From positions 173,290,001 to 173,354,000 of the forward strand of contig OX597815.1 of NCBI GenBank assembly GCA_951406725.2: a stretch of DNA of 64,000 nt, in the 5' to 3' direction. Source of the DNA: Octopus vulgaris (lineage: Eukaryota). The notes below the pieces were generated by a model. It did not search any database. It worked only from the letters and a program-made list of their open reading frames with translations, and had not been told where the DNA came from. Shown piece after piece: positions 1 to 47,932 of the stretch; positions within the stretch are counted from its first letter, which is position 1, and each line of letters starts with the position of its first letter. The translations under genes and the position numbers were made by a program.

Positions 1-3000
1 CTTCAGGTTGATAGACAAGGTTAAAAAAGTAGAGTCACAATAAAGGGGTGGGTTTAGTATAAGCCAAGTTGGATAACATGCAGTTTAGTTTTATATCAAT
101 ATGTGGATTCGCATACATCAAACAAGTGTTTTTAGTTAAAGAAACAACTGTTTTGAATTTGTTAATCAAGAAAAGTATTTGATAGAGTCCCCTGCTCTGT
201 AGATAGGTGAGTACTGAGAAAATTAGATGTGGATAACTGAGTCATGAAAACAGTTCAAACTATGTATAAGGTTATTGTGTGCAATATTTGCATAGTTTCT
301 GTATACAATCTATTTAAACATACAACAGTGTTTCCCTTCAGGTAGATAATCTCCAACCTTCAGTTACTTTCAACATCTCAAATGTACTGGAAACAATCTC
401 AAGTAATAGTCTCATTTATCAAATCAAGCTACTTTTTCTTCTCAATAATCACCAATATGATTTTTGGAGTGCCAGGGCTACTAGATACTCAATATTCTGC
501 ACCACATATCAGTAGTTTCTTGCCTTTGAGAACTTTTTCAAAAGCAATGTTGTAAGCCTTCAACTGAGTCAAGCAAAGAACTTAGAAAGACTGTCTGTCT
601 ATGGTATTACCCTTGTCTCATTATATGAAATGAAAGTTCTCTGTCAGCTCATTCCATTGCATTTTTTGTTGATGAACTCCATTCAAGTCCCAATTTATCA
701 ACTTGAGTATGTCTCAGGGTTCACTTATTTCTGCAATACTCTTCTTTTTCTACATTGATAGTAGTTGTGAGTTCACTGTGCTCCTAAATACACACACACA
801 CACACAGAGGCTTATGAAGATGGTATCAAACCTTTCATAAACTGGTGTAATTCACATGCAACTGAGACAAGCTCACTGATGTACTAATTCTTTTAAAGTA
901 TCTTTCATGAAGAACAAGACAACTTGAATCTTTATAATCTCTATGAATGATAAATTTATGCAAACTACATATTAGTAAAATAGTAAAACTGTTCTCTGAA
1001 AGCAAAAGTTTCTCTACAAGTACCAAAACCACTTTAGATCTGAATAGATGGTGGCCCTTTCTAAGGCACAAAATATATCCTGCAGAATATTGCTTTGCTC
1101 ACAAATATGGAACAGTACCATTTTTGTAAAATCACATATAAAAAAAGTGTGGTAGGGTAATCAAGGAGTCTTTATCTATCTATATGCTACAAGTTTTATA
1201 CATCTACGGCTATTCCTGCTTCTCAGATCTTACAAATTATGCAGTTGTATTGCAAAAGTGTTGAATTTAATCATTGCCAAAGCTCATGTACATATGGTGC
1301 TCACACTAAAGTAGTCATTTTATCAGTTGATTCCCAATAAGACAACAATATTAATTTATTTAAAAAAAAAATACCACTACATTCTAGCTAATTTAGATGA
1401 TATATGCTTTGCAATATTTATGCATATTTTCCTCACAATACAACTATAAAATTTTATTTGGCCCTTGCTGCTGCACATATATATTTTACGAATGTCTTTC
1501 ACGCCAGAATGTACAGGTGGATATGAATGTTTGGATATTTATGTGTTTTTTCATTATGCTTGTCATATTTTTTAAATTAGTATTTTTATAAACCTTTTCA
1601 AAATGAATTAATACCTCTATTATTGTCTAATAGCTAAATAATAATAAAAAAATCCAGAAGAATATGGTTACTTGTATAGTTATATAGTACAGTATGGTTA
1701 AGTCTAAATAAAAATGTGACTAGAATTTTTATTTCTAAATTATCAGAAGCTTAGAAATTATAAAATAATACATTTTTGAATATAAAATATTTAATATTCA
1801 TAACAGCTTTTACATATTGGTTTAAGCAAGCAAACAAGAATAGATAAATGCACAAATTGATTATTTCATGTATAAATAGTTCTATTAGATGCAAGTTCTT
1901 TTATATTAATAGATATAATTATAATTTTAGTGAATAAAGGGACAGCAAATTGGATTATTACAAAATTATCACTGTAGAAAAGATTAGTGAAATGAGCATA
2001 TTTAGAATAAGCTTTAAGGTATCAGAAAACCAGAAGAGTTCCTCATAGATTCACTAAAACAAAATAGCTTAAGAATATGACAAATCTCTGTAACAGAATA
2101 GGGATAGTAATAGCTGCAGGAGAAACAGGAGAAAAAAAAATAATAAAGAAAAGAAGTTATAAACAGGGTAGATGAATGTGATGTTAATATTGTAGAAAGA
2201 GGAGGAAATAAAGAAAAAAGAGCACGTTGCATGAGTCATCAAAGTCAGGTTCAAAACAATTTAACTATTTATTTTTTACTTTGAATTTTTCTGTTTTTCA
2301 ATCAATCTCTCATGGTTTACCTAATTCCTTTTTGATCAATACTTTTGACTGTCTTATTGCGCTTTCTCTAACCCACTTTCTATCTCTTCCTTTTAATCTT
2401 CCTCTCTTCATCCTTCTATCTCATTTAGTGCCTATTAATTTTATTCTTCCTTCCTCTATATTTATCAACTTACTCCTCACTTGACTTTTATTGCTCTCCC
2501 CACTTCTCTTTGTTGTTTCTTATCTTTATTCTAACCCCTTCGGTAAATATGTGTTCATCTTTGTGATATTCCACTGTTAAGATAGCCACCTGATGATCAT
2601 AGTTATTGATTTACCATTAAATAAAAACGGCACCAACAGACAGTATTGAATAATTTCAGGCTTCAAACAATGTTACATTAATTACTGTCCAGAGAACTAT
2701 CAGGCTAACAGATAAAAAATAGCAAAAATACAATATAGTCATCAACATTTTGATGCTTTTTTTCATGCTAGCAGACAGTATGCTACAAACTGTCTCAGTC
2801 TTTTGTAATCTCTTCAAGGACCAGTTTCCTGAGATCTGACATCACCAATACTGATAACATACTCCGATTTCATAAGCATTTTTTCACCCAATAATAGTTG
2901 TCCATTTGAATCACATATTCACACTAGAATAACAGTCTTCTTTGTACATTTGGGCCGAAACTATTAATACTGAACCATTCTGTCATTTCACTTGTTTTTT

Positions 3001-4211
3001 GTCTACCTTTCATGTACATTAGCAATAAACATCCAATAGAGAATGCTGACCCTATTTTTCTCTAGACACCACATATCTTCTGTATTCAATGCCATATCTC
3101 ACAGCGATGTTGCAATACATTTCTTAAACATGCTTTAGAGTCTGCTTTTAGCATGAAGAGAAATATTTTGATACTATCAGTCAATAGTTTGCTGAACTAG
3201 TTCACTTCTTATCTCAACTACAATGCATTCACTACATCCACTCCAATACCAATAATTAGATCAACTAAACAACAGAATCTAGCAACTACATCTTAGAAGT
3301 CTAAATAATTAAAGATTTCATTTTATTCTAACTGTTAACTTCTGTGCATCTATTATGCCTGAAACCTTAATTCTTAATCAGTCTGAAAGAGATTTTACTG
3401 AACATTTGTTTTTTTCAGATGCATTGCTGGTATTGAGTATAAATATATATAAAATTTTGAGTTCCTATATATGCCTTCCTTGTTATTGAACATGGACAGC
3501 TCCCAAGTGCAATGGAATTTCCTACATACCATTTGGTTCTTATTAATTTCATAATCTTTTAGCAAATACCCAGATGTACACACATATACCTTTACTTATT
3601 TTTCAAGTAAGCTTTTTTGTTTTCCTCCCATTCCACCAATTTTCATACATCTGCTGAACTACAGGAAAGTATGCTGTCACCATTTTTTACTAATGGTGCT
3701 AACGAAGACATGTTGTGCACACATGCCCTCTCTTTCTCTTTTGGAAACACATACATATAATGAGGCAGCCCCAGGCTATTCAGCACAGGTCGTCAACCCT
3801 ACAATGTGTATCACACTTTCCCAGTTCCAACCATTTCATGAATACAGCCTGGATACAGCAATAGCTTTTTTTTTTTTAACAATAGTTCAGTTGGAGATGG
3901 CTCAATTTTCTCTTACTTTTAAAATATTGTTCTAGAAGTGATCTAACCTACACTTTATGTTACCAAGTTTGTATATTTTTATTAGGATTAAGAAATTTTC
4001 TCTAAGTTTTCTCCAGATTCTCAAATTTATGTGGCATCTCCAAATTTTAGCACTCAAATCCCTTTATTTGCCAAGTGCATAGCACCAGTCTTGTATAAAA
4101 TGTGTGTGTATGAATTTTTTCCTTTCACAAACTTTGAGAGATATGAACAAAATTGCTTTAATGGTGAAACTTGAAATAGATAAAACCATACATAATAGCA
4201 TGTGTAATATT

Positions 4212-7673: not shown

Positions 7674-7803
7674 CTAGCTCCACACTTTCTGAACTATCTG
7701 TACTGAGTCGTCTTTCTTCACCCTCTTCACGTAGGTAATACCTTCCTGCTTCAAGATTCTGTTCAACTACAGGACGCTTTAAATCTAGCTGATCTCTCAA
7801 TCT
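7674..7803 (-). CDS. Dys: Dystrophin-like coding exon, equivalent of human DMD exon 58
   Basis: Acceptor tttccccag|AGA after a 109-nt intron (7804-7912), donor TAG|gtaaat; 130 nt, phase 0 to 1. RLRDQLDLKRPVVEQNLEAGRYYLREEGEERRLSTDSSESVEL resembles DMD AFKRELKTKEPVIMSTLETVRIFL. Confidence 0.92.
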
Positions 7804-7912: not shown

Positions 7913-8069
7913 CTGATTTTCTTCATTTTGCTGTTGAACCAATTGCAAATCTCCTCCAACAGGTTGTTGGGAGATGAGCATTCTTTGCTGTTGAGTGATC
8001 CAACTAGTAAGGTCTTGTAGTTGAAGTAACAAGTGTGTCCATTGTTCTGCATTACTCTCCAAACGCCCT
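7913..8069 (-). CDS. Dys: Dystrophin-like coding exon, equivalent of human DMD exon 57
   Basis: Acceptor ttctgttttag|A, donor CAG|gtaaat; 157 nt, phase 2 to 0. (R)GRLESNAEQWTHLLLQLQDLTSWITQQQRMLISQQPVGGDLQLVQQQNEENQ resembles DMD SHLEASSDQWKRLHLSLQELLVWL...APIGGDFPAVQKQNDVHR. In frame with the previous exon. Confidence 0.95.
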
Positions 8070-9658: not shown

Positions 9659-10919
9659 TGTTAAATTGTAAGCCAAAGTGAAACTAAAACGAGAAAATTC
9701 TCCAAGGTAAATTTGGATTTTGTGTTCAAAAGCCGAGGCAAATTTTTGAAAACCTGAAGTATTAAGGTAAAGGGGTCAACAGGTATTGTTACTTTTCCTC
9801 TATTTTTTTTACAAGGAAATAACTGCTACATGTTAAGTTTCCAGTTAAAATTCTCACAAAAGAAAAAAAGAAAAATCTAAATCAATATATACTGAAGAAT
9901 TCTGTTATTATTTCCCAAAGATAAAACAGCTGCCATACATTTTGTTATTACAAAAGAAAGCTGTGATCTTATGTTAGCATTAGCCTTAGGAATAAAACAA
10001 CCATAGAAATGAAAATTGTACACTTTGGGAGAATATGGTAGTAATTTTGGGTTTTTTCAAAATTCATTTCTAAAAAAATGTAGAGCCAGACAATTAGGAA
10101 GTTTTTAATAGCAAGAAGAAAAAAAATGAAAGAAAAAGAAAAGAAAACAAAATAAAATAACAAAACACTTGGTTTAATATGTTTTTGTGAAACCTTTATG
10201 AATAAAACTGTGTGATAAGAGACAGGTCAATAATCAATATTAATATTTTCACACATCAATTGACCAGATAAGGTTATTTTGATGTTAATTTCTCAAGCTT
10301 TTCTGAAAAACATCAATATCTATTTTTCTTTTATTAACTATTTTGTTTTAGTGACAATATTCTGAGTTCAAACGGCTTTACCCAGCTTCTGAGTAATACA
10401 TTACACCTCATTATGTCAATCTGAAATATTTCTGTTGCTACCACTCATAATTAAAAAAAAATCTTTTTTCCAATTTAGTCAATAAGGGAAGGGCTGTCAG
10501 TGATCATGAACTTTGTGGGAATTCCTGGATAAGAATTCAGGGTTGGCTAATTAATGGTAGGAAAGCTATCCAGTTGCAGAAGTACATCTTCAAATTAACA
10601 TGTCAATATCCAATTGAGAAAGCTATACTGGCATAGGGTAGATGAATATAAAATAAATAGAAATTTTCTCTCAAGGAGAGTATATGAAAAAAAAAAAAAA
10701 AATAAGACTTGTGCCTCTCAAAAGACCTACATAGTAAACTTCATTCACTACATTTAACAAATAAGCAAACAAGAAATAATAAAAATCAAAGCCTTGGAAA
10801 GATCAGTTTGTAGAAATAAGCAGCATGACTGTTATTCCTAGCAAGTAGAGTAACCACCCAGAGACACCCTGTTGACTTGACTTTCATAAATATTTTCCAA
10901 GGAAATTGTTTATACTGTG

Positions 10920-12075
10920 TAGCGGCATGTGTTGGGTGGTTTGACTGGGCTGGCATGCTGGAAGGCTGCACTAGGCTCCAGTCTGATTTGACATGGTTTT
11001 CTACAGCTGGATGCCCTTCCTAATGCCAAACACTCTGAGAGTGTCAGAGATGCTTTTACATGCCACTAGCATGGGTGCCATTTGTTTGACACCGGTAACT
11101 GCCACAACTGTGATTTTGCTCGGCTTGATGGCTCTTCTTCCCAAGCACAACATAATGCCACAAGGCCCAACACTCGAAAGGAGCTTGGCCACTTTGCCTT
11201 CATGAAGCCCAGTGCTCGAAAGGAATGCAGCCACCTCACTTCTGTGAAGCCTGCTCAAGAGGAACTCAACTACCTCCCCTCCATGAGGCCCAACACTTGA
11301 AAGGAAAACAGCCACTGAGGCCCAATGCTTGAAAGGAACTCAACCACTTTGCCTCTGTGAGGCCCAACGTTCAAAGGTTTTTTTTTATGTGCCACCAGTA
11401 CAGGTGCACTTGGCTAGACAGGTCCCCTTAAGCAGAGCACATCACTAAAGGTCTTGGTCACTAGTCATTGCCTGTGTGAGGTTCAAAGTTTGAAGGTCAA
11501 GTTTCACCACCTTGTCCCATGTCTTCCTGGGTCAATCTCTACCACAGGTTCCCCCTACAGTTAAAGATTGGCATATTTTTACACAGCTGTCTTCATCCAT
11601 ACGCATCAGTTAAAGATTGGCATATTTTTACACAGCTGTCTTCATCCATATGCAGCACAGTCATCTCTCTTACACACCACATCTGATTCCTCTTATGCCT
11701 AAATTTTCTCTCAAGATGCTTACACTCTGTCGAACATGTACATTGACATTGCACATCCAGCGAAGCATACTGGCTTCATTTCTCTCAAGCCTATGCATGT
11801 CCTCAGCTGTTATACTCAGCATGTTTCACTGCCATGCAGCATAGCTGTTCGTACACAGGCATCAAACAATCTGCCTTTCACTCTGAGAGGAAGGCTCTTT
11901 GTTGCCAACAGGGGTAGGAGCTCTCTGAACTATTGCCCAGCCTAATCTTATTCTCACAGCTATGCTCTAGGAACAACCACCTCTACTACTAACTTGGTTA
12001 CCTAGATACCAGAAGCTATCTACTACCTCTAGCTTCTTTCCCCTCTGGCAGTTGATGGAGTCTATTTTCTGCACA
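10920..12075 (-). mobile_element. 5'-truncated, degenerate RTE-clade LINE (C-terminal RT region plus 3' UTR)
   Basis: Minus-strand peptide fragments EVVDSFWYLG, LLPLLATKSLPLRVKGRLFDACVRTAMLHGSET, EASMLRWMCNV...LRE.LGIRGI and PRKTWDKVVKLDL are typical of the RTE post-RT region; frameshifts and stops present. Confidence 0.82.
11160..11380. repeat. Minisatellite of ~42-nt units inside the RTE 3' UTR
   Basis: About six variants of (g)aggcccaacactcgaaaggaactcagccactttgcctccat, one truncated. Confidence 0.8.
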
Positions 12076-12866
12076 TAAACAAATCTTATCTCAACCCATC
12101 TAACGCAATGGGGTTTATTTTGAATTTAGAACTAGTATCATCACTATCTTTGTTTTCATGTCCTTATATCAGAATAATTCCTGTAGTTATTTTTCTTTGA
12201 TTATATTACATCATCTATAGCTGTGATACATATTTAATGGCCCTAGAAAATAGCTATGTAGGTGTCCCTGCAACCATCAATTAAACTTAATGCATTACAG
12301 TTTTAAGTTCAACCCTTACTTATAGTCAATAAAATAAGTACCAAATAAAATTTTGTAGCTATATGCTGATGTATAAATCATTACTATATTTTTTATTTTA
12401 TGAATTCAATATAGCATTAAGTACTTAGAATTATTGATTCAACATTATGAAAAATCTCAGGGCTATACCTGTACATCAGTTTTGTAAGAAATATATCGAA
12501 AGTGAAACAAAGAATGCATTAAGTCTGTCTGGAAGTTCTAAATGAGATCAATTAAAGAATACTGTAAGTATGTACAAAGTAAGGTTTTTGTCTTAGAAAG
12601 CTGGATGATAGAAAATATCCAATATTGATTTTATGTGAAATGTATACCAGCAATGCTACTTTATTTTTCGGTAGCACTCACTTCTCAGTCCTTGAACAAT
12701 CAAAGCCATTTTTCTTAAGCTACCTGTCTTTTATTTCTGATTTTGTTCCTGTAACCCTTGTTACTAACAGTCTTCACTTGTTAAAATGCTTATCAAATCT
12801 CTGTATAAAATAACTGTTTCAATAGCTACTCTGAATAAAAGGAATTTTTTTTGTATATGAAGAGAT

Positions 12867-13125: not shown

Positions 13126-13295
13126 CTGATTTCCATTGAGGTGGTCATCAATGTGAGCCATCGCTGGTTCATCTCCTCCAGACGATGATGAAGCTGTGTA
13201 GTATCTTGTGCTACCATGGTTCTTGCAAGTTGATTACCAGCACTTGTTAATGATTCATAAGCATTTTGGTGAGAATCTACTTCTGCCTGAATTTC
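13126..13295 (-). CDS. Dys: Dystrophin-like coding exon, equivalent of human DMD exon 56 (spectrin-repeat rod)
   Basis: Acceptor ttttcatag|GAA, donor CAG|gtatgc; 170 nt, phase 0 to 2. Translates EIQAEVDSHQNAYESLTSAGNQLARTMVAQDTTQLHHRLEEMNQRWLTLMTTSMEI(R), resembling utrophin DIQAEIDAHND...LQHRLDDMNQRW and DMD DLQGEIEAH...RRLDNMNFKW...SLNIR. Confidence 0.93.
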
Positions 13296-16200: not shown

Positions 16201-18029
16201 CCATAGACATTTTTGAACCTCACATAAAATAGCAGTTGGTAAAAACTGTATTCAACAAGCCATATTTAATTAAATTTTCCAAGTGCTACAGCAATGTAAA
16301 AGCGATTCAAACTTGAATAAAAGATGGATAGTTGAGTAGATATTTAAAACTGTAATTTGTGACAACCAAAACTCAAGTAGATCAATAAAAATTGAGAACG
16401 TACAATGTATAGAGTTTAGTATATAGGACTAAATAAAAGGTTGATTTCCTTTATGTTGCCATCTGAAACCAATAACGAAGTGCTCACAATGGATATAGAG
16501 GTGAAGAAAGCTCAATCAAAGGATTAATCGAACATAAAATTGAATCATGTAATATTTACAATTTAATCTTGAAAGGAAAAGAATGAAAAGTCCTCAGAAC
16601 ATCATGATTGTTCTTTTATTGATTGCCAAGCAGAAATTGGCAACATCCTGTATATAAAATTAAAAACATTTAACTAAATTTAAAAAAAGGAGAGGCAAAA
16701 ATGATCTTAATAATGGTAGAATAGTTTGTCATTCTTACCACGATCAAACTTTAAACATACTTCCTATTTTTTAAACTTTGGGATTTACTTTTCGTTCATA
16801 AGAAATGCAAAAAATATCATGAATAGATTGAAAGCAGCAATTCAAAATAAACATGAATTGCATTTATAGCTTATGAGCAAGGAATAACCATGTTTCAATA
16901 AAAAGTATACTTGCTATAGAAATCACTTTTAAAAAGAACAGGTATTTTGATTATGCACCTCACAACATGATTCTAACCAGTACGGCATGAATTCTTTCAG
17001 AAGTTATTTGTTACTATCATGAGATAGCAGGGAAATTTAGAGGAAAACAGCATTGATAACCATCTGAATTATAAAAAATGAAATATTCTTACATTCACTG
17101 TGCCATTGTGTTTTCTGTCATGTTCATTTGTATTATTATTATTTTTGTCATATTTATGAAATAAAGGTGTTTATGCATAAATGTCAAGCTATTTTGATGC
17201 TAAATGATTTGTACACATGTATACATCTCAACCCTGTGCAATATAACATATCAAATGCATCCATGAAGAAAGATAAATGTTTTGGGAGATCAGTTAATTT
17301 CCACAAATAAGAAAATGGATGACAGCATCTAAAATAATCATAGAATACAAACGTTATTTTCCCAAAAGAACTCTCAAATTATACTCATAAACTGTTGGTA
17401 CCACCATGAGTTAGAAATGATCAGTGATATAACAGTAATAAGTAACTGAATGAATGACAAAAAATTTTTTTATCAAGAACACAAATGTTTAGAAGTAGGA
17501 ACAAAGAGGCTTCCTTTGTTTCTTTAGGTTGAATTTCAAAGAACAAAATAACATCATAGATGCAGTTGTCTGATTTTTGTTTTGGAAAAGGTAGTGCAAT
17601 AATTAAAGATGAATTCAATTAACAACAATAAACTTTTGTCTACAACTGTTTGTCTGTTTTTAAGAATTCTAAGATAATGTACAGAATTAAGTAAAATTAC
17701 AATTTATTATTAATGAATGACTGTTTCAAACTTTGGCACAAGCCATGTATTTTGAAAGAGAAGAATGATCAAGTTAATCATTCTCAGTTTTGACAAGTAT
17801 CTATTTAATTGATGTGAAAAGAATAAAAGGCAAAGTCAGTCAGTCCTTGGCAATGATTTAAACTCAACATATAAACTATAACAACAAAATACTGAAAATA
17901 TTTTGTCTTGTGTTCTAGCTGTTTTACCATGTCAACTTACTGAAAATCTTCAACATGACTGCTGTCTCCATAGCATAGTATGCCATATCTCAAAATATGA
18001 CAATGTGTTTATTTTACAGTGATATTTGT

Positions 18030-19249
18030 TTGAAGTCTGTCCAAAGATAAATCAAACATTAAACCTACATGCCAACCAGACTGTGCAGCATGTTCAGAAT
18101 TGCAGTGCTGTATATAGGTGACCTTGACTTTCAGCCAGTCTTGCCTACATTTGCTAGAGTGAATACAATCATCTCCAAAGATGTTCAGATTTGGGATTGT
18201 CTTCAGTTGCAAGTTGAACAATGTAAGATTTGGAACAGTAATGTGGTTATGAGAAATTGTTTTAAGACTTTTGTGAAAACTTTTCTAATGTTGCAACAAA
18301 CCCTTATGTTGGACTGTTTGAGCTGCATGCAATGCCACAAGGAGTACAAGCATTTCAAATTGGGAAGAACATCTACCAAAAACAATCTGATCATGAAAGT
18401 GCATAGAGTGATGCATGTAAATTGTCACCAAATGATTTGTAAAATTTCCAAAGAAAGAAACATCTGTGAAAGTTCATGCCATGTGATTTTCGAAGTTGGT
18501 GCTATGTCAACTAACAAATGAACAAGGAAAAAAAATTTTACAGCCAGTCAGAAACTGTTTAACAGCTTGAATGCAATGAATGAAAACATAACGTGATGGA
18601 ATGTAAGAATAGGGCTACAACGTCAAAGCAAATAGGCAGCTGTTACAGTGGGTTGGATCAATGTTGCCATAACGAAAAAGATAAGTACAAGAGAGTTGTT
18701 CAAATGTGAAGGTGATGTTGGCCACTTTTTTCTTTTTTTATTTCTATTGGAGAGTTGTCGAGCATTATGATTTTGTTCTACATGATCTGACAAATAAGGT
18801 GTTTTTGTTGGATGTTCTGAAGCATCTATGAGAGGCAATGTAAAGGAAGAGAAGAGGAGCTTGGATGACAAAACCTAGATGCTGCACCATGACAATGTAC
18901 CTGCTCGTGCTTCACTCCTTGTCTATAACTTTTTAGTCAAGTACAAAACCACTCTCATTCCCCAGCTGCCTTACTCTCTGGTTTGGTCTCTACAGACTAT
19001 CTTTCCCCAAATTGAAATTCACTCTGAAAGGTCACAGATTTTAAATGATAAAAATCAAGGAAAATTTGTAACAAGAACTGATTACTACCTCTGCCACTGT
19101 AAAGGCATTCCAGAACTGGAAAACCTTGGGAGCTGAGGAAACTATTTTGAAGGAGATAAATATGATTAATAGTAGGTGAAGAAAAATAAAAAAAAAAATT
19201 TTATTTAAAGATTCTGGTGGTTTTTTTTTATATTTTGGATAGATCTTGT
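18030..19249 (+). mobile_element. Degenerate mariner (Tc1/mariner) DNA transposon, ~1.2 kb
   Basis: Remnant MLHHDNVPARASLLVYNFL...IPQLPYS..W..DYLFP.LKFTLKGHRF (HDNA and YSPDLAP.D motifs). Decayed TIRs gaagtctgtccaaa / tttggatagatctt; many stops and frameshifts. Confidence 0.85.
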
Positions 19250-34700: not shown

Positions 34701-36983
34701 AAATAGTAAAGGAAGATTAAAATAAGACCTAGGAAGAAACCTTAACACTACACTCAATCCTTAGGTTCCTTAAACATAGTTCCCTCTGTTCCATTTAGAC
34801 AAGATTCCCTGTTCTTTTCATACACATATTTCTCTTCAGACATTGACCTACAACTGTCCATGAATTTCACCAGTCTAAGGGGGCCTGCAGAGGATACAGG
34901 CACTGCCCTCTGACTTATAAAAATAAACATAAAAAAGACAGAAGAAACCTGAGGGAAGTAAACTTCAGAAAAATGATAATGTAGAATTACAACACATGGA
35001 TCAATATTGTATTTCAGATTCATCTAACATACACTGGCATGCAAAATGGAAATGATGATGACGATGAGATACATCAATCAGTGACCTGTTATTTTGAAAT
35101 CCAGTAACCTTTTAGGATAAACTCAACAGGGACAACTGAAAGATGTTAAATTGCAGTAATGTATTAGACATAGAATTATTCTAACAACAAAAACAATTTC
35201 AAAAATATGTCTGCCTAACCATACACAGCAATATCTGCCTGTCTAACAACTATACACATACTGTTACAAAAATAACATCATAAATATCTGATTAACTTCT
35301 ATTATATTGCAGATAAATCTAAGAAAAGGTTTGTTATTTTAGCCTGTTTGGTTTTAGCTTCTTAGTTTTTGTAAACATTCTTACTCAGGCTATTTTGTAA
35401 AATTGGGTTATAGGAAAAGTTAGCTGAAAACTCCCCTAACATATAAACAATGGTTAACTTCTCAAAAATAAATATAAAAATAAGAGAAGCTTCTGGGCTA
35501 TATATTTAGTTCAGTAAAATTTGATACATCATCCAAAGTGGTGTATAAAAGGGAAACAGATTGTTAAATTTGTTTATAAAATGAATGATATTGGAGGTTG
35601 GAACATAGGAAATGGGAGCAAGAGGGAAAAACCCTCGAAAACTAAACAGAGATAAAACATTCTGTTTTGATTAAAGAGCAATATAGAATACTGATTAATT
35701 AGATTTAACATTTTCTGAGCAGAGATTAGCATATACTAAAATATTTATAGTTGGAATCTGATGATAAATGTCTATATTAATATATTTGAAAGTATTTAGA
35801 AAAAATATTTAAGAATATTTTTAATTTAGGAATTATTGTTCCTTTCTTTTATCAAAGTGTTTATATTATAAACACTATCAAAGAAGTTAAATTCAAATTC
35901 TAATGAGATTAAGCAGATAATTAAAAATACTGTTTATAATTCATATTATAATGTTGTATGTGATTGAGTCAGGTAAAACTTTCAAAGTTTTATCAGGTTT
36001 GTAAATATCCAGATTAACACTACAAAGTACATAAGAGAAAACTGGGGAAGGGGGGATGTATCTTGATTATAAGCTTAATATGTTTTAGCTCAATTTTTTG
36101 TGTTTCTATTCATGCTGTATTCTATCTACCTCTTAATTGACACACTCCCTAATGGCTAAGAACATAAACTATGAATTACAATATAGTTTGAGTAGAAGTG
36201 TAGCTCAAAAGTGTATGACTGTTTGTATGTGCATGCATGCATGTGTATGTGTGTGCACTGCAGCAAAAGACGATTGGTGACTATACAGATCAAAATATAA
36301 TGTAAATATAAAATAAAGTATGAAGGCCTTATCTTCTGCTCTTGCATTTCAGAATAACAGAGAAACAAAAGTGAAGATGAAAGAAAAATATACTTGTTTA
36401 TCAATTTACAAATGACACTTTACAATTTTTATAAGTTTTATAGGGATTAGAGGTATGAATATTAGACAATTATTTATTAACAAGGTATTTCAAATATAAT
36501 CTAAAAAGATACTTAAGAATGTGTGTCTACATATTCAGTGAAGAAATTTAAGATTTATAAAAATGTTGAAATATTTTCATAAGTTATTTTAAAAACCAAC
36601 GTAACATTATTTAAACATTGTAAAACATTAATCAACATAAGTAAGCTTTATTCTTTCAACAACACACATAACTCACTCTTGCTATGTATATGTAAATGCT
36701 ACACACAACATACACTTAAAATTATGATTTCAATTAGAGCCTAAAAAAAAATTAGAGATAAAAGTAACATTTGATATCAAATAATTAAATTCAATAATTT
36801 ATTAAGTGATATTGAAGATTTTGACACAAGGTAAATTACCAGTTAGATAAGGTGAAAAACATCTTAAACAGAAATATATATATGTATATATTTATATGCT
36901 CAATATAGTTTGAAGTTAGAAAATTGAATAAACTTAAGTGTTGCAACATAAGTAGATATAGTGTATTTATGAAGTTATCTTAC

Positions 36984-37034
36984 CTGCTCAAACTCAGTTA
37001 ACACGGCTTGCAGGTTCAGATTAATTTCTATCAT
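36984..37034 (-). CDS. Candidate alternative first coding exon of a short (Dp116/G-utrophin-like) dystrophin isoform, MIEINLNLQAVLTEFEQ
   Basis: ATG at 37034-37032, 17 codons, near-consensus donor CAG|gtaaga in phase 0 matching the acceptor at 13295. In-frame upstream TAG; surrounding sequence not recognised as a repeat. No transcript evidence available. Confidence 0.55.
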
Positions 37035-40000
37035 ACAAGGAGAAAAATGCAATGCAAGCCTGTGGGCCAGGGTTCCTTCAGTTGCACCATCTGACTACAA
37101 CTTAAGGCAGTCAGGTAAACCCCATAGTCAAATTATAATTTTTGGTAGATTGTGTTTGCAACAAGCTTCCTTTTGAGATTTGATATAACATTACTTGTAG
37201 ATTGAGTGTATAAAAGGGAGTTGAACAAAAACCGTTGGTAGCCGGTTGATCATTTTGTCAACAAAAGTATAAACTATGGAGCATTTTCTCTGGGATGTAA
37301 CCGACTGGTTGCTCAGTTGTGGGTAATCTTAGTGGAAACACAAAAACAACAGCAGAAGAAAACTTTCTCCACCTCCTCTACCTCCTTCTCAACTGCCAAG
37401 TGTTATGAATGGATACAACACATAAGACAGCTGGCAAATCACAGGCACTCAAGTGGTCTAGTACTATACTAAAAAAGAAAGCATCCCAAGGAAATCTATA
37501 CTACTTGACATTCCAAACGGATTGTTCTTAATCAATTTTTTCAAGCAATTTAGAGTTAAACTGGCCAGTAGTCTATGTCTGGTTGATATATATTGTAAAG
37601 TATCTACCAATTTGATAGACTTTTCCTAGAGGGTAATGGTATTAATGATAGTGGAAAGAAAGGCGAAAGTGAAAAGGCAGCCAGTCAGCCCTAACAGACA
37701 ACAGTATTTAGGGGATCATAGCAGTGTATTTTCCATGAATGGAAATACCAGAGGAGGAGACTAATGTAACAGGAGAAGTAATGAGTATTGTTAAAGGAGT
37801 GATAGTAGGAGGATGTGTTTCATACTACTATAGCTACTGCTGCTGCAGGCGTCTTGACTGGAACAAGCAATAATATCCCAGCAGAAACAGACCCACATGG
37901 AGAGGTGTGTGTGTATGAATGAGAATGAGAAGACGATGGGGGGTAGTAATAAGGAAAAGAAAGCAACTAGGAGCATTACACAAATGTTACTTTACTGTGG
38001 AAGTGGCTAACATTTCACAGCATAGAGAAAAAAAAAATGTTTTAGATGAAAACTGAAAGAGGAAGAAGAGAAAGTGATGGGAGGAAATTGTGTGTGTGTG
38101 CGTGTGCCAAGTTAAGTCATGCAGTTAGAGAGAAGGGAGCAACTGTTTGAACAGAATGCACCTTCATACAGAACAGGATGAGAGGAATATGATAGATTAT
38201 ATTTAAGGATTCAGTATAGAATTATACTGAAAGATCTTTCAATTTCAGGCCCTCCCATTCATTTATAAATGATACTGGAAAAAAAAAAGAGAAAAAAAAA
38301 AGTAATATAGAAAGCAAAAGCACCTTTGATTCCCTATCCAAGTAAATATTAGGAGTTCTTTGAAATAAATTTTATTTTTAATAGTTGAATGAAATGTTTC
38401 TTTTTACAATGCAATCCAAATATTTTTGTTTACCTTTTTTTGTAAAACTAATTTCAAGATCAACAACTTCTGTTTAAGTTTAAAATAGTTGTTATTAAAA
38501 TGGTATAATGTGCAGTTTGGTAAGGGACTATTTCAATATTATGCTAATGCAGATGATTTCAAGAAAAGGATCTTAGTTAACTTTATTTCTTGAAATTTTA
38601 GATCATACATTTTGCAGGCCAGATGTGTAGGTCTTTCTTGCAAGAGATAAAGAATTATTAATAGTTATAACTTTAATATTAACTAGGTCAACATAATATA
38701 TCCTGCTGTTAATATTAAATTTAATCCTTACAAAACTGAACATGTTAAACAAAATTTTCTTTTTTTCATGAATTTATATACTAGCATAGGTTCAATGGTT
38801 ATGCAAGTGTGTATATTTTAGTGCATTTTAAACTCCCAAATACTAATATGTAAAACAAACAGTGGGCACTGATATGCATTTTCAGCCAATTTGAAAGAAA
38901 CAAGTATTTTGGGGCATGTTAACATTTCATTCCAAAATTGTATATGTAGGAAATACTCCAGCATGATCTTAGCACTGTTGGCTAAAACAAACTATAGGGT
39001 TAACTAACATGTCTCACTACAACATGGTTTGTTAACTTCTGTTTCCATATAAAAATAATTATTTGGCTAATTCCAGTGAATTTGTCCAGTTACTCTACTG
39101 CATTTGCTTAGTAAGTAAAAATGGTGGTACTAATTAAATACCATATAGTATTTAGCTACAGCTATTCATATATGGGTTTAAAACCTGCTAGAGTTAACTT
39201 GGGTTTTTCATCAACCTAAGGTTGATAAAATAAGTGTCATTAATATACTAGGGGTGATTTAATTGACTATACCTGTGACACACATTAGAACTTTGTGGCC
39301 TTGTTATAAAGGGGAGGTAGCACAAATGGAACAGTGCTAGGTTAAAATACCTTACAGTACTCATTGTTATTTTTTCATATCCTCAATTGAACTGCTTTGA
39401 TTTTTGCCTATCTATAAAAAATGCACCACACATGTTGAAATGAAGGAGAGGGGGCAATTCGATTGACTTTACTATTCTCCAACAAATTTGGAGCCTTGGG
39501 CCACTGAAAGAAATCAATATTACCATTACTCAGTAGATGTTCTGTAAAGAATGGAAAATGTTGAGACTAACAAAACTTGAATATTTACAACTAGTCTACT
39601 TCATCATAAATTGTCATAAAGTGTCCAAAATTGAAGCAATGAAAATTATGATCTGAATGATTAAAATTAGGAACATGCTATTCCATTAATTAAAGTCTCT
39701 AAAGTTAATCATCAAAGCAAACTGACCTGATGTTTTTCCAGTTAGGTTATGATATTATTCTAAACATGATACACCTCCCAAGGAGACATATTTTGCAGTT
39801 TGTTTTGTTCACTGTAGCCTTGACAATGTTGACATTTCAAAGGTTTTAATGAAATTAATAGTATCCATGCAACAATCTAATATTCATTGTAACAGAACCA
39901 GCTGTATAGCAGGCCGAGCAAACCTCTAACCAACAACTTTATGGGCTCTGCTTCTGTATTATTATTATTATTATCATTATTATTATTTCAAATGCACCAT

Positions 40001-47682: not shown

Positions 47683-47932
47683 TGCAAGCACAATCATTTA
47701 ATACCCTTTTTTCCATGCCAGCTTATTTAAGACAGCAATTTACAATCAAATGCTCTTCCTATCACCAACCCTTACCTGCTTTTCAAGTAGAAAAATTTCA
47801 ATGGTCTTTAGCAGTATAGGATGACTGGCCATAATATCAACAATATATGTGCACATCATATCACTATTTTGCTCAGGCGGTGACAAGCAAAGCCATGAAA
47901 TATTAGCATTCATGCATATTATATTTACCATG

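Follow-up and report, generated by a model that had tools for sequence, protein, structure and literature searches.

Short dystrophins and utrophins that begin near exon 56 have been described in several animals, and the accounts summarized here follow the available excerpts of the cited papers. Human Dp116 and the predicted Dp118 use a first exon (S1) located in intron 55 and spliced in phase 0 to exon 56, with a short coding part and a product of ~950-980 residues devoid of the actin-binding domain (PMC5664101); Dp116 shares dystrophin residues 2740-3685 (PMC5664101). G-utrophin (Up113) departs from the full-length utrophin sequence at this joint, and its 48-residue N-terminus, which has conserved cysteines, is said to resemble that of Dp116 (PMC5664101, PMC1790709). 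In Drosophila and sea urchin, Dp205 and SuDp98 arise in the orthologous intron, as described in PMC1790709. An ancient intron-55 promoter was proposed from position, and the N-termini of Dp116 and G-utrophin were linked through their cysteines (PMC1790709). In the available part of that paper, no N-terminal sequence is described that Dp116 would have in common with the fly or the sea urchin product, so a shared peptide would be sequence evidence for an ancient promoter and would suggest that the N-terminus itself has a function.

Here, we analyzed a window of 64,000 nucleotides from Octopus vulgaris (G000:C2:173290001-173354000) in which an exon of 0.7 to 1.1 kb, lying in intron 55 of the dystrophin gene, is spliced to exon 56. 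We think it very probable that this is the start of a predicted short dystrophin carrying an ancestral 17-residue motif, the exon being likely the first. Isoforms of this kind are known, while the mollusc case is new within the literature searched and the shared motif came as a surprise. Neither a mollusc isoform nor a cross-phylum motif was described in any paper found there, subscription journals being mostly missing from that literature.

The exon resembles the Dp116/Dp118 and G-utrophin starts in its intron, its phase-0 splice, its short coding part and the predicted size of the product, which supports part of the preliminary description of this locus as Dp116-like. Human S1 measures 91 bp and lies 755 bp from exon 56, whereas the octopus exon is 0.7 to 1.1 kb long and 23.7 kb away (PMC5664101). 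The peptide itself is not that of S1: compared by eye with the Dp118 peptide (24 residues, the final 17 being used), it has 2/17 identities, with F15 and E16 absent there and no cysteines here (PMC5664101). The cysteines in Q/NxC context, which together with a basic peptide typify a Dp116/G-utrophin first exon proper, are missing, a comparison made by eye with Dp118 only. Dp205 is much larger than the octopus form and SuDp98 starts internally (PMC1790709). Drosophila Dp117 (Dys-RE) is likewise short, with its own N-terminus and no actin domain, but it has 1051 residues and at most spectrin repeat 24 (PMC11772804, PMC2840664), from which we infer that it joins downstream of exon 56; its orthology to the octopus start was rejected (PMC11772804, bioRxiv 10.1101/2024.03.14.585005).

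Host gene and intron

The host gene is dystrophin, as indicated by the Pfam domains of the related proteins P0001 and P0006 (spectrin repeats, WW, EF-hands and ZZ). Whole P0001 gave 27 matches, all on the minus strand of contig C2, and exon 56 in the window is 93% identical to this protein, whose cluster includes Sepia pharaonis proteins. The exon numbering relies on the match of P0006 residues 9-940 to positions 2725-3695 of the solved dystrophin structure 9c3c_D, on a snake dystrophin joint and on the available part of PMC5664101. Exon 56 encodes the second half of a spectrin repeat (positions 46-95 of the Pfam PF00435 profile) and, used alone against the PDB, retrieved only a weak match to utrophin repeat 1.

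With a 64-residue stretch of P0001, we located the exon-55 homologue at G000:C2:173391895-173392084, where it ends in a phase-0 donor. The whole intron from exon 55 to exon 56 measures 88.6 kb, of which the last 23,688 nt follow the start exon. Because exon 55 lies 65 kb upstream of the start exon and exon 56 downstream, the intron is orthologous to human intron 55, in agreement with the preliminary description. Table 1 lists the features.

Table 1. Features of the alternative start and neighboring exons (window positions unless a locus is named)
Feature	Position	Strand	Basis
Coding part of alternative 5' exon, 17 codons, MIEINLNLQAVLTEFEQ, ATG at 37034	36984..37034	-	ORF and conservation
Alternative 5' exon, transcribed and unspliced, 5' UTR of ~0.7-1.1 kb	36984..38106	-	RNA-type contigs
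Phase-0 splice donor gtaaga, used in RNA	36978..36983	-	Sequence and contigs
Upstream ORF, out of frame, TGA overlapping the start ATG (ATGA)	37031..37090	-	Sequence
TCAGTT hexamer; resembles an acceptor as well (CAG up to 38053, 19/20 pyrimidines)	38051..38056	-	Sequence
Exon-56 homologue, 170 nt, phase-0 acceptor for the start exon	13126..13295	-	Protein match and contigs
Exon-57 homologue	7913..8069	-	Joined to exon 56 in 4/4 runs examined
Exon-58 homologue	7674..7803	-	Protein match
Candidate for a second alternative first exon, with 35 basic codons and a CAG|gtaggt donor	L005:7563-7667 (G000:C2:173371563-173371667)	-	ATG-open frame

Sequence features of the probable start exon

The 17-codon ATG frame running into a CAG|gtaaga donor in phase 0, from which this work started, is present at 37034-36984. 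Its nearest in-frame stop lies 21 codons 5' of the ATG. The open frame totals 37 codons, 17 of them from the ATG, which sets it apart from a long first exon of the Dp205 type with several hundred unique N-terminal residues. Such a frame is common by sequence alone, since an ATG-open frame precedes all three AG|GTRAG donors on the minus strand between 13296 and 64000 (50.7 kb). What raises the start exon above chance is the RNA and the conservation described below, not the sequence alone.

The GC content of 36984-38160 is 0.392, compared to a window median of 0.310, which bears out the GC-richer stretch noted earlier; 11 of 629 sliding windows reach this value, 10 of them clustered near 10.3-12.4 kb. 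The stretch had also been considered unique, and it is indeed single-copy but for one match of 72% over ~120 bp to part of the 5' UTR. This second copy is found 29 Mb away on the same contig, at L002:1501-1619 (G000:C2:202169239-202169357). Judged by eye, minus-strand frames in the GC-rich region 10900-12200 resemble the decayed end of a non-LTR retrotransposon, and frames at 18000-19200 a decayed mariner-type transposase.

Two other features had to be given up. The TCAGTT hexamer, proposed as an initiator, occurs 49 times on this strand in the 64 kb; given this frequency and a contig that runs on to 38106, it carries no weight. The amphipathic-looking pattern of the cephalopod peptide is equalled by 1314 of 5000 shuffles and is not significant. 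A scan for sigma-70 promoters gave 6 sites against 5.2 expected and was discarded, the model being inapplicable to animal DNA.

Splicing of the probable start exon in RNA

Among 24 listed sequencing runs, 20 contain words of this stretch and 14 were guessed to be RNA, none being recorded as such; another count, of runs with nearly none of the start-exon words (4/24), says nothing on absence. Six runs were examined: X1, X3 and X6 (organism A, three studies), X13 (organism B), X14 (organism C) and X22. Exon 56 was joined to exon 57, with intron cover near nil, in 4/4 runs (X13, X14, X1 and X22), indicating that these are spliced RNA. X22, with one 225-nt contig and three upstream letters, was uninformative as to the start.

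Start-exon contigs run from the donor to 37709 (plus one to 37906) in X1, to 37884 in X3, to 37780 in X6 and to 37713, 37740 and 38106 in X13. In X1, X3 and X13, a loose end of 25 nt at 36983 equals window positions 13270-13294 (among the 20 of 24 loose ends listed). The junction thus appears in three of four runs and in two organisms, X1 and X3 belonging to two studies of organism A, and the X6 contig shows the same 25-letter offset at the donor, its own loose end lying outside those 20. The junction contigs are exact and recurrent but extend 25-26 letters on the exon-56 side, under the 31-letter bridging rule. They support the in-frame splice of the start exon to exon 56 (26 letters on that side in X1, X3 and X13), as had been predicted for an exon-56-like exon 23.7 kb downstream, and we have next to no doubt that the spliced isoform is real.

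The start exon is likely a first exon transcribed from an internal promoter. Its contigs end between 37709 and 38106 without listed joints, although contigs cannot reveal a start site, and no joint inside the exon is listed for X1, X3, X6 or X13. An acceptor at 38053 or 38275 might instead join it to a further upstream exon, placing the promoter elsewhere and leaving the protein start unchanged. Both sites follow strong pyrimidine tracts (19/20 and 20/20, respectively), some insect frames lacking an ATG (see below) may need such an exon, and, with 20 of 24 loose ends listed, an upstream joint could be among the rest. Yet neither acceptor has a joint or loose end among those listed, and the X13 contig continues unspliced across 38053 to 38106, those of the other three runs ending at 37780-37906, so that we regard this arrangement as very unlikely. 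With the start exon as first exon, transcription would begin at dispersed sites between ~37700 and 38100.

Conservation of the N-terminal peptide

A search for shorter relatives retrieved 28 proteins. Among them, Candidula P0006 (CAG5122950.1) begins with 17 residues fused to exon 56, 6/17 identical to the octopus peptide, and Bradybaena P0030 (BFZ24844.1) begins with the same counterpart (6/17), a likeness reached by 16 and 38 of 100,000 shuffles. These two land snails provide the conservation in related species that the preliminary description had suggested looking for. A long Bradybaena form, P0031, has exon-55-like sequence followed by 938/938 downstream residues equal to those of P0030, indicating one gene with two starts. 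The motif was found in 0/14 members of the P0001 cluster and was not seen in the cuttlefish, bivalve, annelid, crinoid or echinoderm sequences among those retrieved. Nothing under an E value of 0.2 was among the listed tblastn matches of the P0002, P0005 and P0006 N-termini to the intron, P0006 residues 1-120 recovered only P0006 itself among 106 candidates, a degenerate DNA pattern of the mollusc peptide had 0 matches in metagenome contigs, and the ESM Atlas returned generic spectrin-repeat clusters only.

The peptide is not confined to molluscs. Using the snail N-terminus as query, which favors motif-bearing matches, we found the motif ahead of exon 56 in 8 of 85 representative proteins, namely, six insects (Timema, Leptosia [CAK1546850.1], Laodelphax, Plutella, Manduca and Trichomalopsis), one shrimp (Penaeus) and one bird utrophin (Lamprotornis, KAI1240834.1). 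It also occurs in a crab model and in additional Penaeus models, one of which stops one residue, V, after the motif, as expected of a frame read through the donor. The arthropod forms have longer N-termini ahead of the motif, and all motif-bearing models are automatic annotations. The bird sequence is a single partial gene model (one member) with a 36-residue N-terminus, the last 17 residues of which, MIGLNFSLRELLTKFEK, share 8/17 identities with the octopus peptide; their score of 43 was reached by 0 of 200,000 shuffles. The N-terminus had been assumed to be the mollusc's own, an assumption not supported by a peptide common to arthropods and a bird utrophin model.

Genomic DNA gave a similar picture. 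At least 17 metagenome loci contained a relative of exon 56 (41/64 parts scanned), and 15 were kept after dropping the transcript-like L014 and L024. With the window peptide, the phase-0 donors of L017, L018 and L021 took the top three ranks among the 1194 GT donors in these loci, with scores of 33, 30 and 23 and the next at 15; 33 was reached by 1 of 3000 shuffles and 23 by 203 of 3000. As L017 and L018 are 96% alike, they count once. In the other 12 of the 15 loci, most with short flanks, the motif was not found. Conversely, the bird, arthropod and snail peptides each ranked position 36984 first of the 1576 GT donors in the octopus intron. In none of the three genomic insect frames does an in-frame ATG appear over 72-125 codons; a non-AUG start or a further exon may be the reason.

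In another reading, the isoform is real but the peptides of mollusc, arthropod and bird resemble each other by convergence, since any peptide fused to exon 56 must continue the same helix; we think this unlikely. The motif has only 17 residues, helix-forming residues are common and some pairs score low (2 for a shrimp copy against the cephalopod peptide and 10 for snail against L017). Nevertheless, exon-55 ends continue the same helix and obtain scores of -24 to +3 when compared with the motif set (five shifts, seven proteins), by which we also discarded an origin of the motif as a duplicate of the end of exon 55. Other starts at this joint, i.e., P0046, L014, the L005 candidate described below and human S1 (PMC5664101, available part), lack it. 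Over 14 motif copies, E16 is kept in 14/14, L/F12 in 14/14, F15 in 13/14 and L8 in 12/14, and N5, T13 and E16 are shared, so that the likeness extends beyond hydrophobic residues. From these comparisons, common descent of the motif in molluscs, arthropods and vertebrates appears highly probable, and the matches found where snail, insect, crustacean and bird sequences join exon 56 suggest that the start is likely older than the split of these groups.

Several other features were seen around this joint. Arthropod motif exons share a TWPGR-like motif further upstream (L017:3986-4201, L018:4435-4713 and L021:4254-4619; P0068, P0069 and P0073). Long Dp205-like N-termini without the 17-residue motif reach the exon-56 joint in Bemisia P0046 and in L014:1-1620 and, as other arthropod models have the motif, two or more starts appear to exist at this joint in arthropods. 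In the animal contig L013, an open frame of 925 codons (1282-4056) lies 3 kb ahead of exon 56 and may be a Dp205-like exon or unrelated.

Translation and predicted product

The 17-residue peptide is probably translated, in our judgment with good confidence. The start context of its ATG is weak (T at -3, A at +4) and the 5' exon contains 9 ATGs when counted from 37713 and 16 from 38106, the coding one included, that is, 8-15 upstream ATGs. Ribosomes would have to reach 37034 past all of these, and output is therefore probably low or regulated. We also considered a true alternative start whose translation proceeds mostly from the exon-56 methionine at 13217, with the peptide minor or vestigial in octopus. 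The in-frame ATG at 13217 has a strong context, in contrast to the weak one with an overlapping upstream ORF at 37034; its methionine is kept in the aligned mollusc exon-56 sequences, it is also where the Sepia models P0034 and P0035 begin, as do two further mollusc models, and internal initiation has been described for sea urchin SuDp98 and fish DRP2 (PMC1790709, available excerpts). Against this, an untranslated frame should not hold 8/17 identities to the bird peptide and 6/17 to those of snails, with length and phase exact, and P0034 and P0035 derive from a gene split at this very intron, P0033 and P0037 ending after exon 55. We consider predominant initiation at 13217 quite unlikely.

Translation from 37034 would yield 17 + 966 residues (~983 in total, ~113 kDa, estimated from P0001), predicted to retain half of repeat 22, repeats 23-24, WW, EF-hands, ZZ and coiled coil without the actin-binding domain. 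From general dystrophin biology (PMC5664101, PMC2840664, available parts), such a form would scaffold dystroglycan, syntrophin and dystrobrevin without a tie to actin. In the repeat cut by this start, helix B would be left an orphan, and the motif would most likely lengthen it. The conserved hydrophobic face of the motif (positions 2, 4, 6, 8, 12 and 15) would replace helix A, absent from this product, or serve to dock a partner; this docking or capping role is put forward tentatively. A structural model of the bird protein predicts the motif and exon 56 as one helix (pLDDT ~91 at residues 21-30, pTM 0.36, seven sequences), while the full-length snail model has a mean pLDDT of 53 and is unconfident at residues 1-26.

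Regarding origin, we lean towards an ancestor of molluscs, arthropods and vertebrates that already had a motif-bearing intron-55 short dystrophin. In vertebrates, the exon would have survived in utrophin, separate from that of G-utrophin, and perhaps in the dystrophin of some lineages. The Dp116 and G-utrophin starts would then be later additions to an intron with several alternative starts, and an overlooked ancestral short utrophin with a conserved docking helix may exist in mammals. The bird N-terminus of 36 residues, as opposed to 48 in G-utrophin, appears to be another exon when compared by description. Up109 is a short utrophin of about the mass expected here and may or may not be the mammalian form (PMC10789850, available part). 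The 17 residues provide a handle for seeking an uncharacterized short utrophin in vertebrates; this bears on utrophin knock-outs and antibodies by which short forms are missed. The motif could also be mutated in moth, wasp, snail or chick.

Other candidate starts in the dystrophin gene

The exon-56 contigs of X1, X13 and X14 have two upstream branches, one of 49-2488 nt that is probably exon 55 and one formed by a 33-nt stem with four upstream letters. In all three runs, this stem connects the start-exon branch to the exon-56 contig. The start-exon contigs break exactly at the stem, with depths of 12 (X1) and 115 (X13) compared to 39 and 403 in the stem; contig depths were used for this branching inference only and never as expression level. 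The branching is most simply explained by another upstream exon whose last four bases match those of the start exon. Skipping of exon 54 was discarded as its source, because exon 54 does not end in GCAG, as was the donor at 47776, whose fifth-last base is the same as that of the start exon and would not produce the observed break. Of 19 intron donors with the same four bases, the best fit was L005:7563 (G000:C2:173371563), the donor of the candidate first exon in Table 1. This candidate sits in a 1-kb stretch with a GC content of 0.40-0.42, and no homologue was found among the fetched proteins.

A further internal start was observed in the same gene, with a first exon at L009:2051-2215 (G000:C2:173523550-173523714, minus strand) encoding a strongly hydrophobic, transmembrane-like N-terminus. 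Here, the ATG follows an in-frame stop and the exon ends in a phase-0 GT. This N-terminus (19-residue hydropathy of 2.7-2.9) belongs to a dystrophin of ~1830 residues (P0001, P0039 and P0031) and was found in Sepia-cluster proteins from Logan and in the snail Bradybaena, the L009 copy being 89% identical. A membrane-anchored dystrophin isoform would be unusual.
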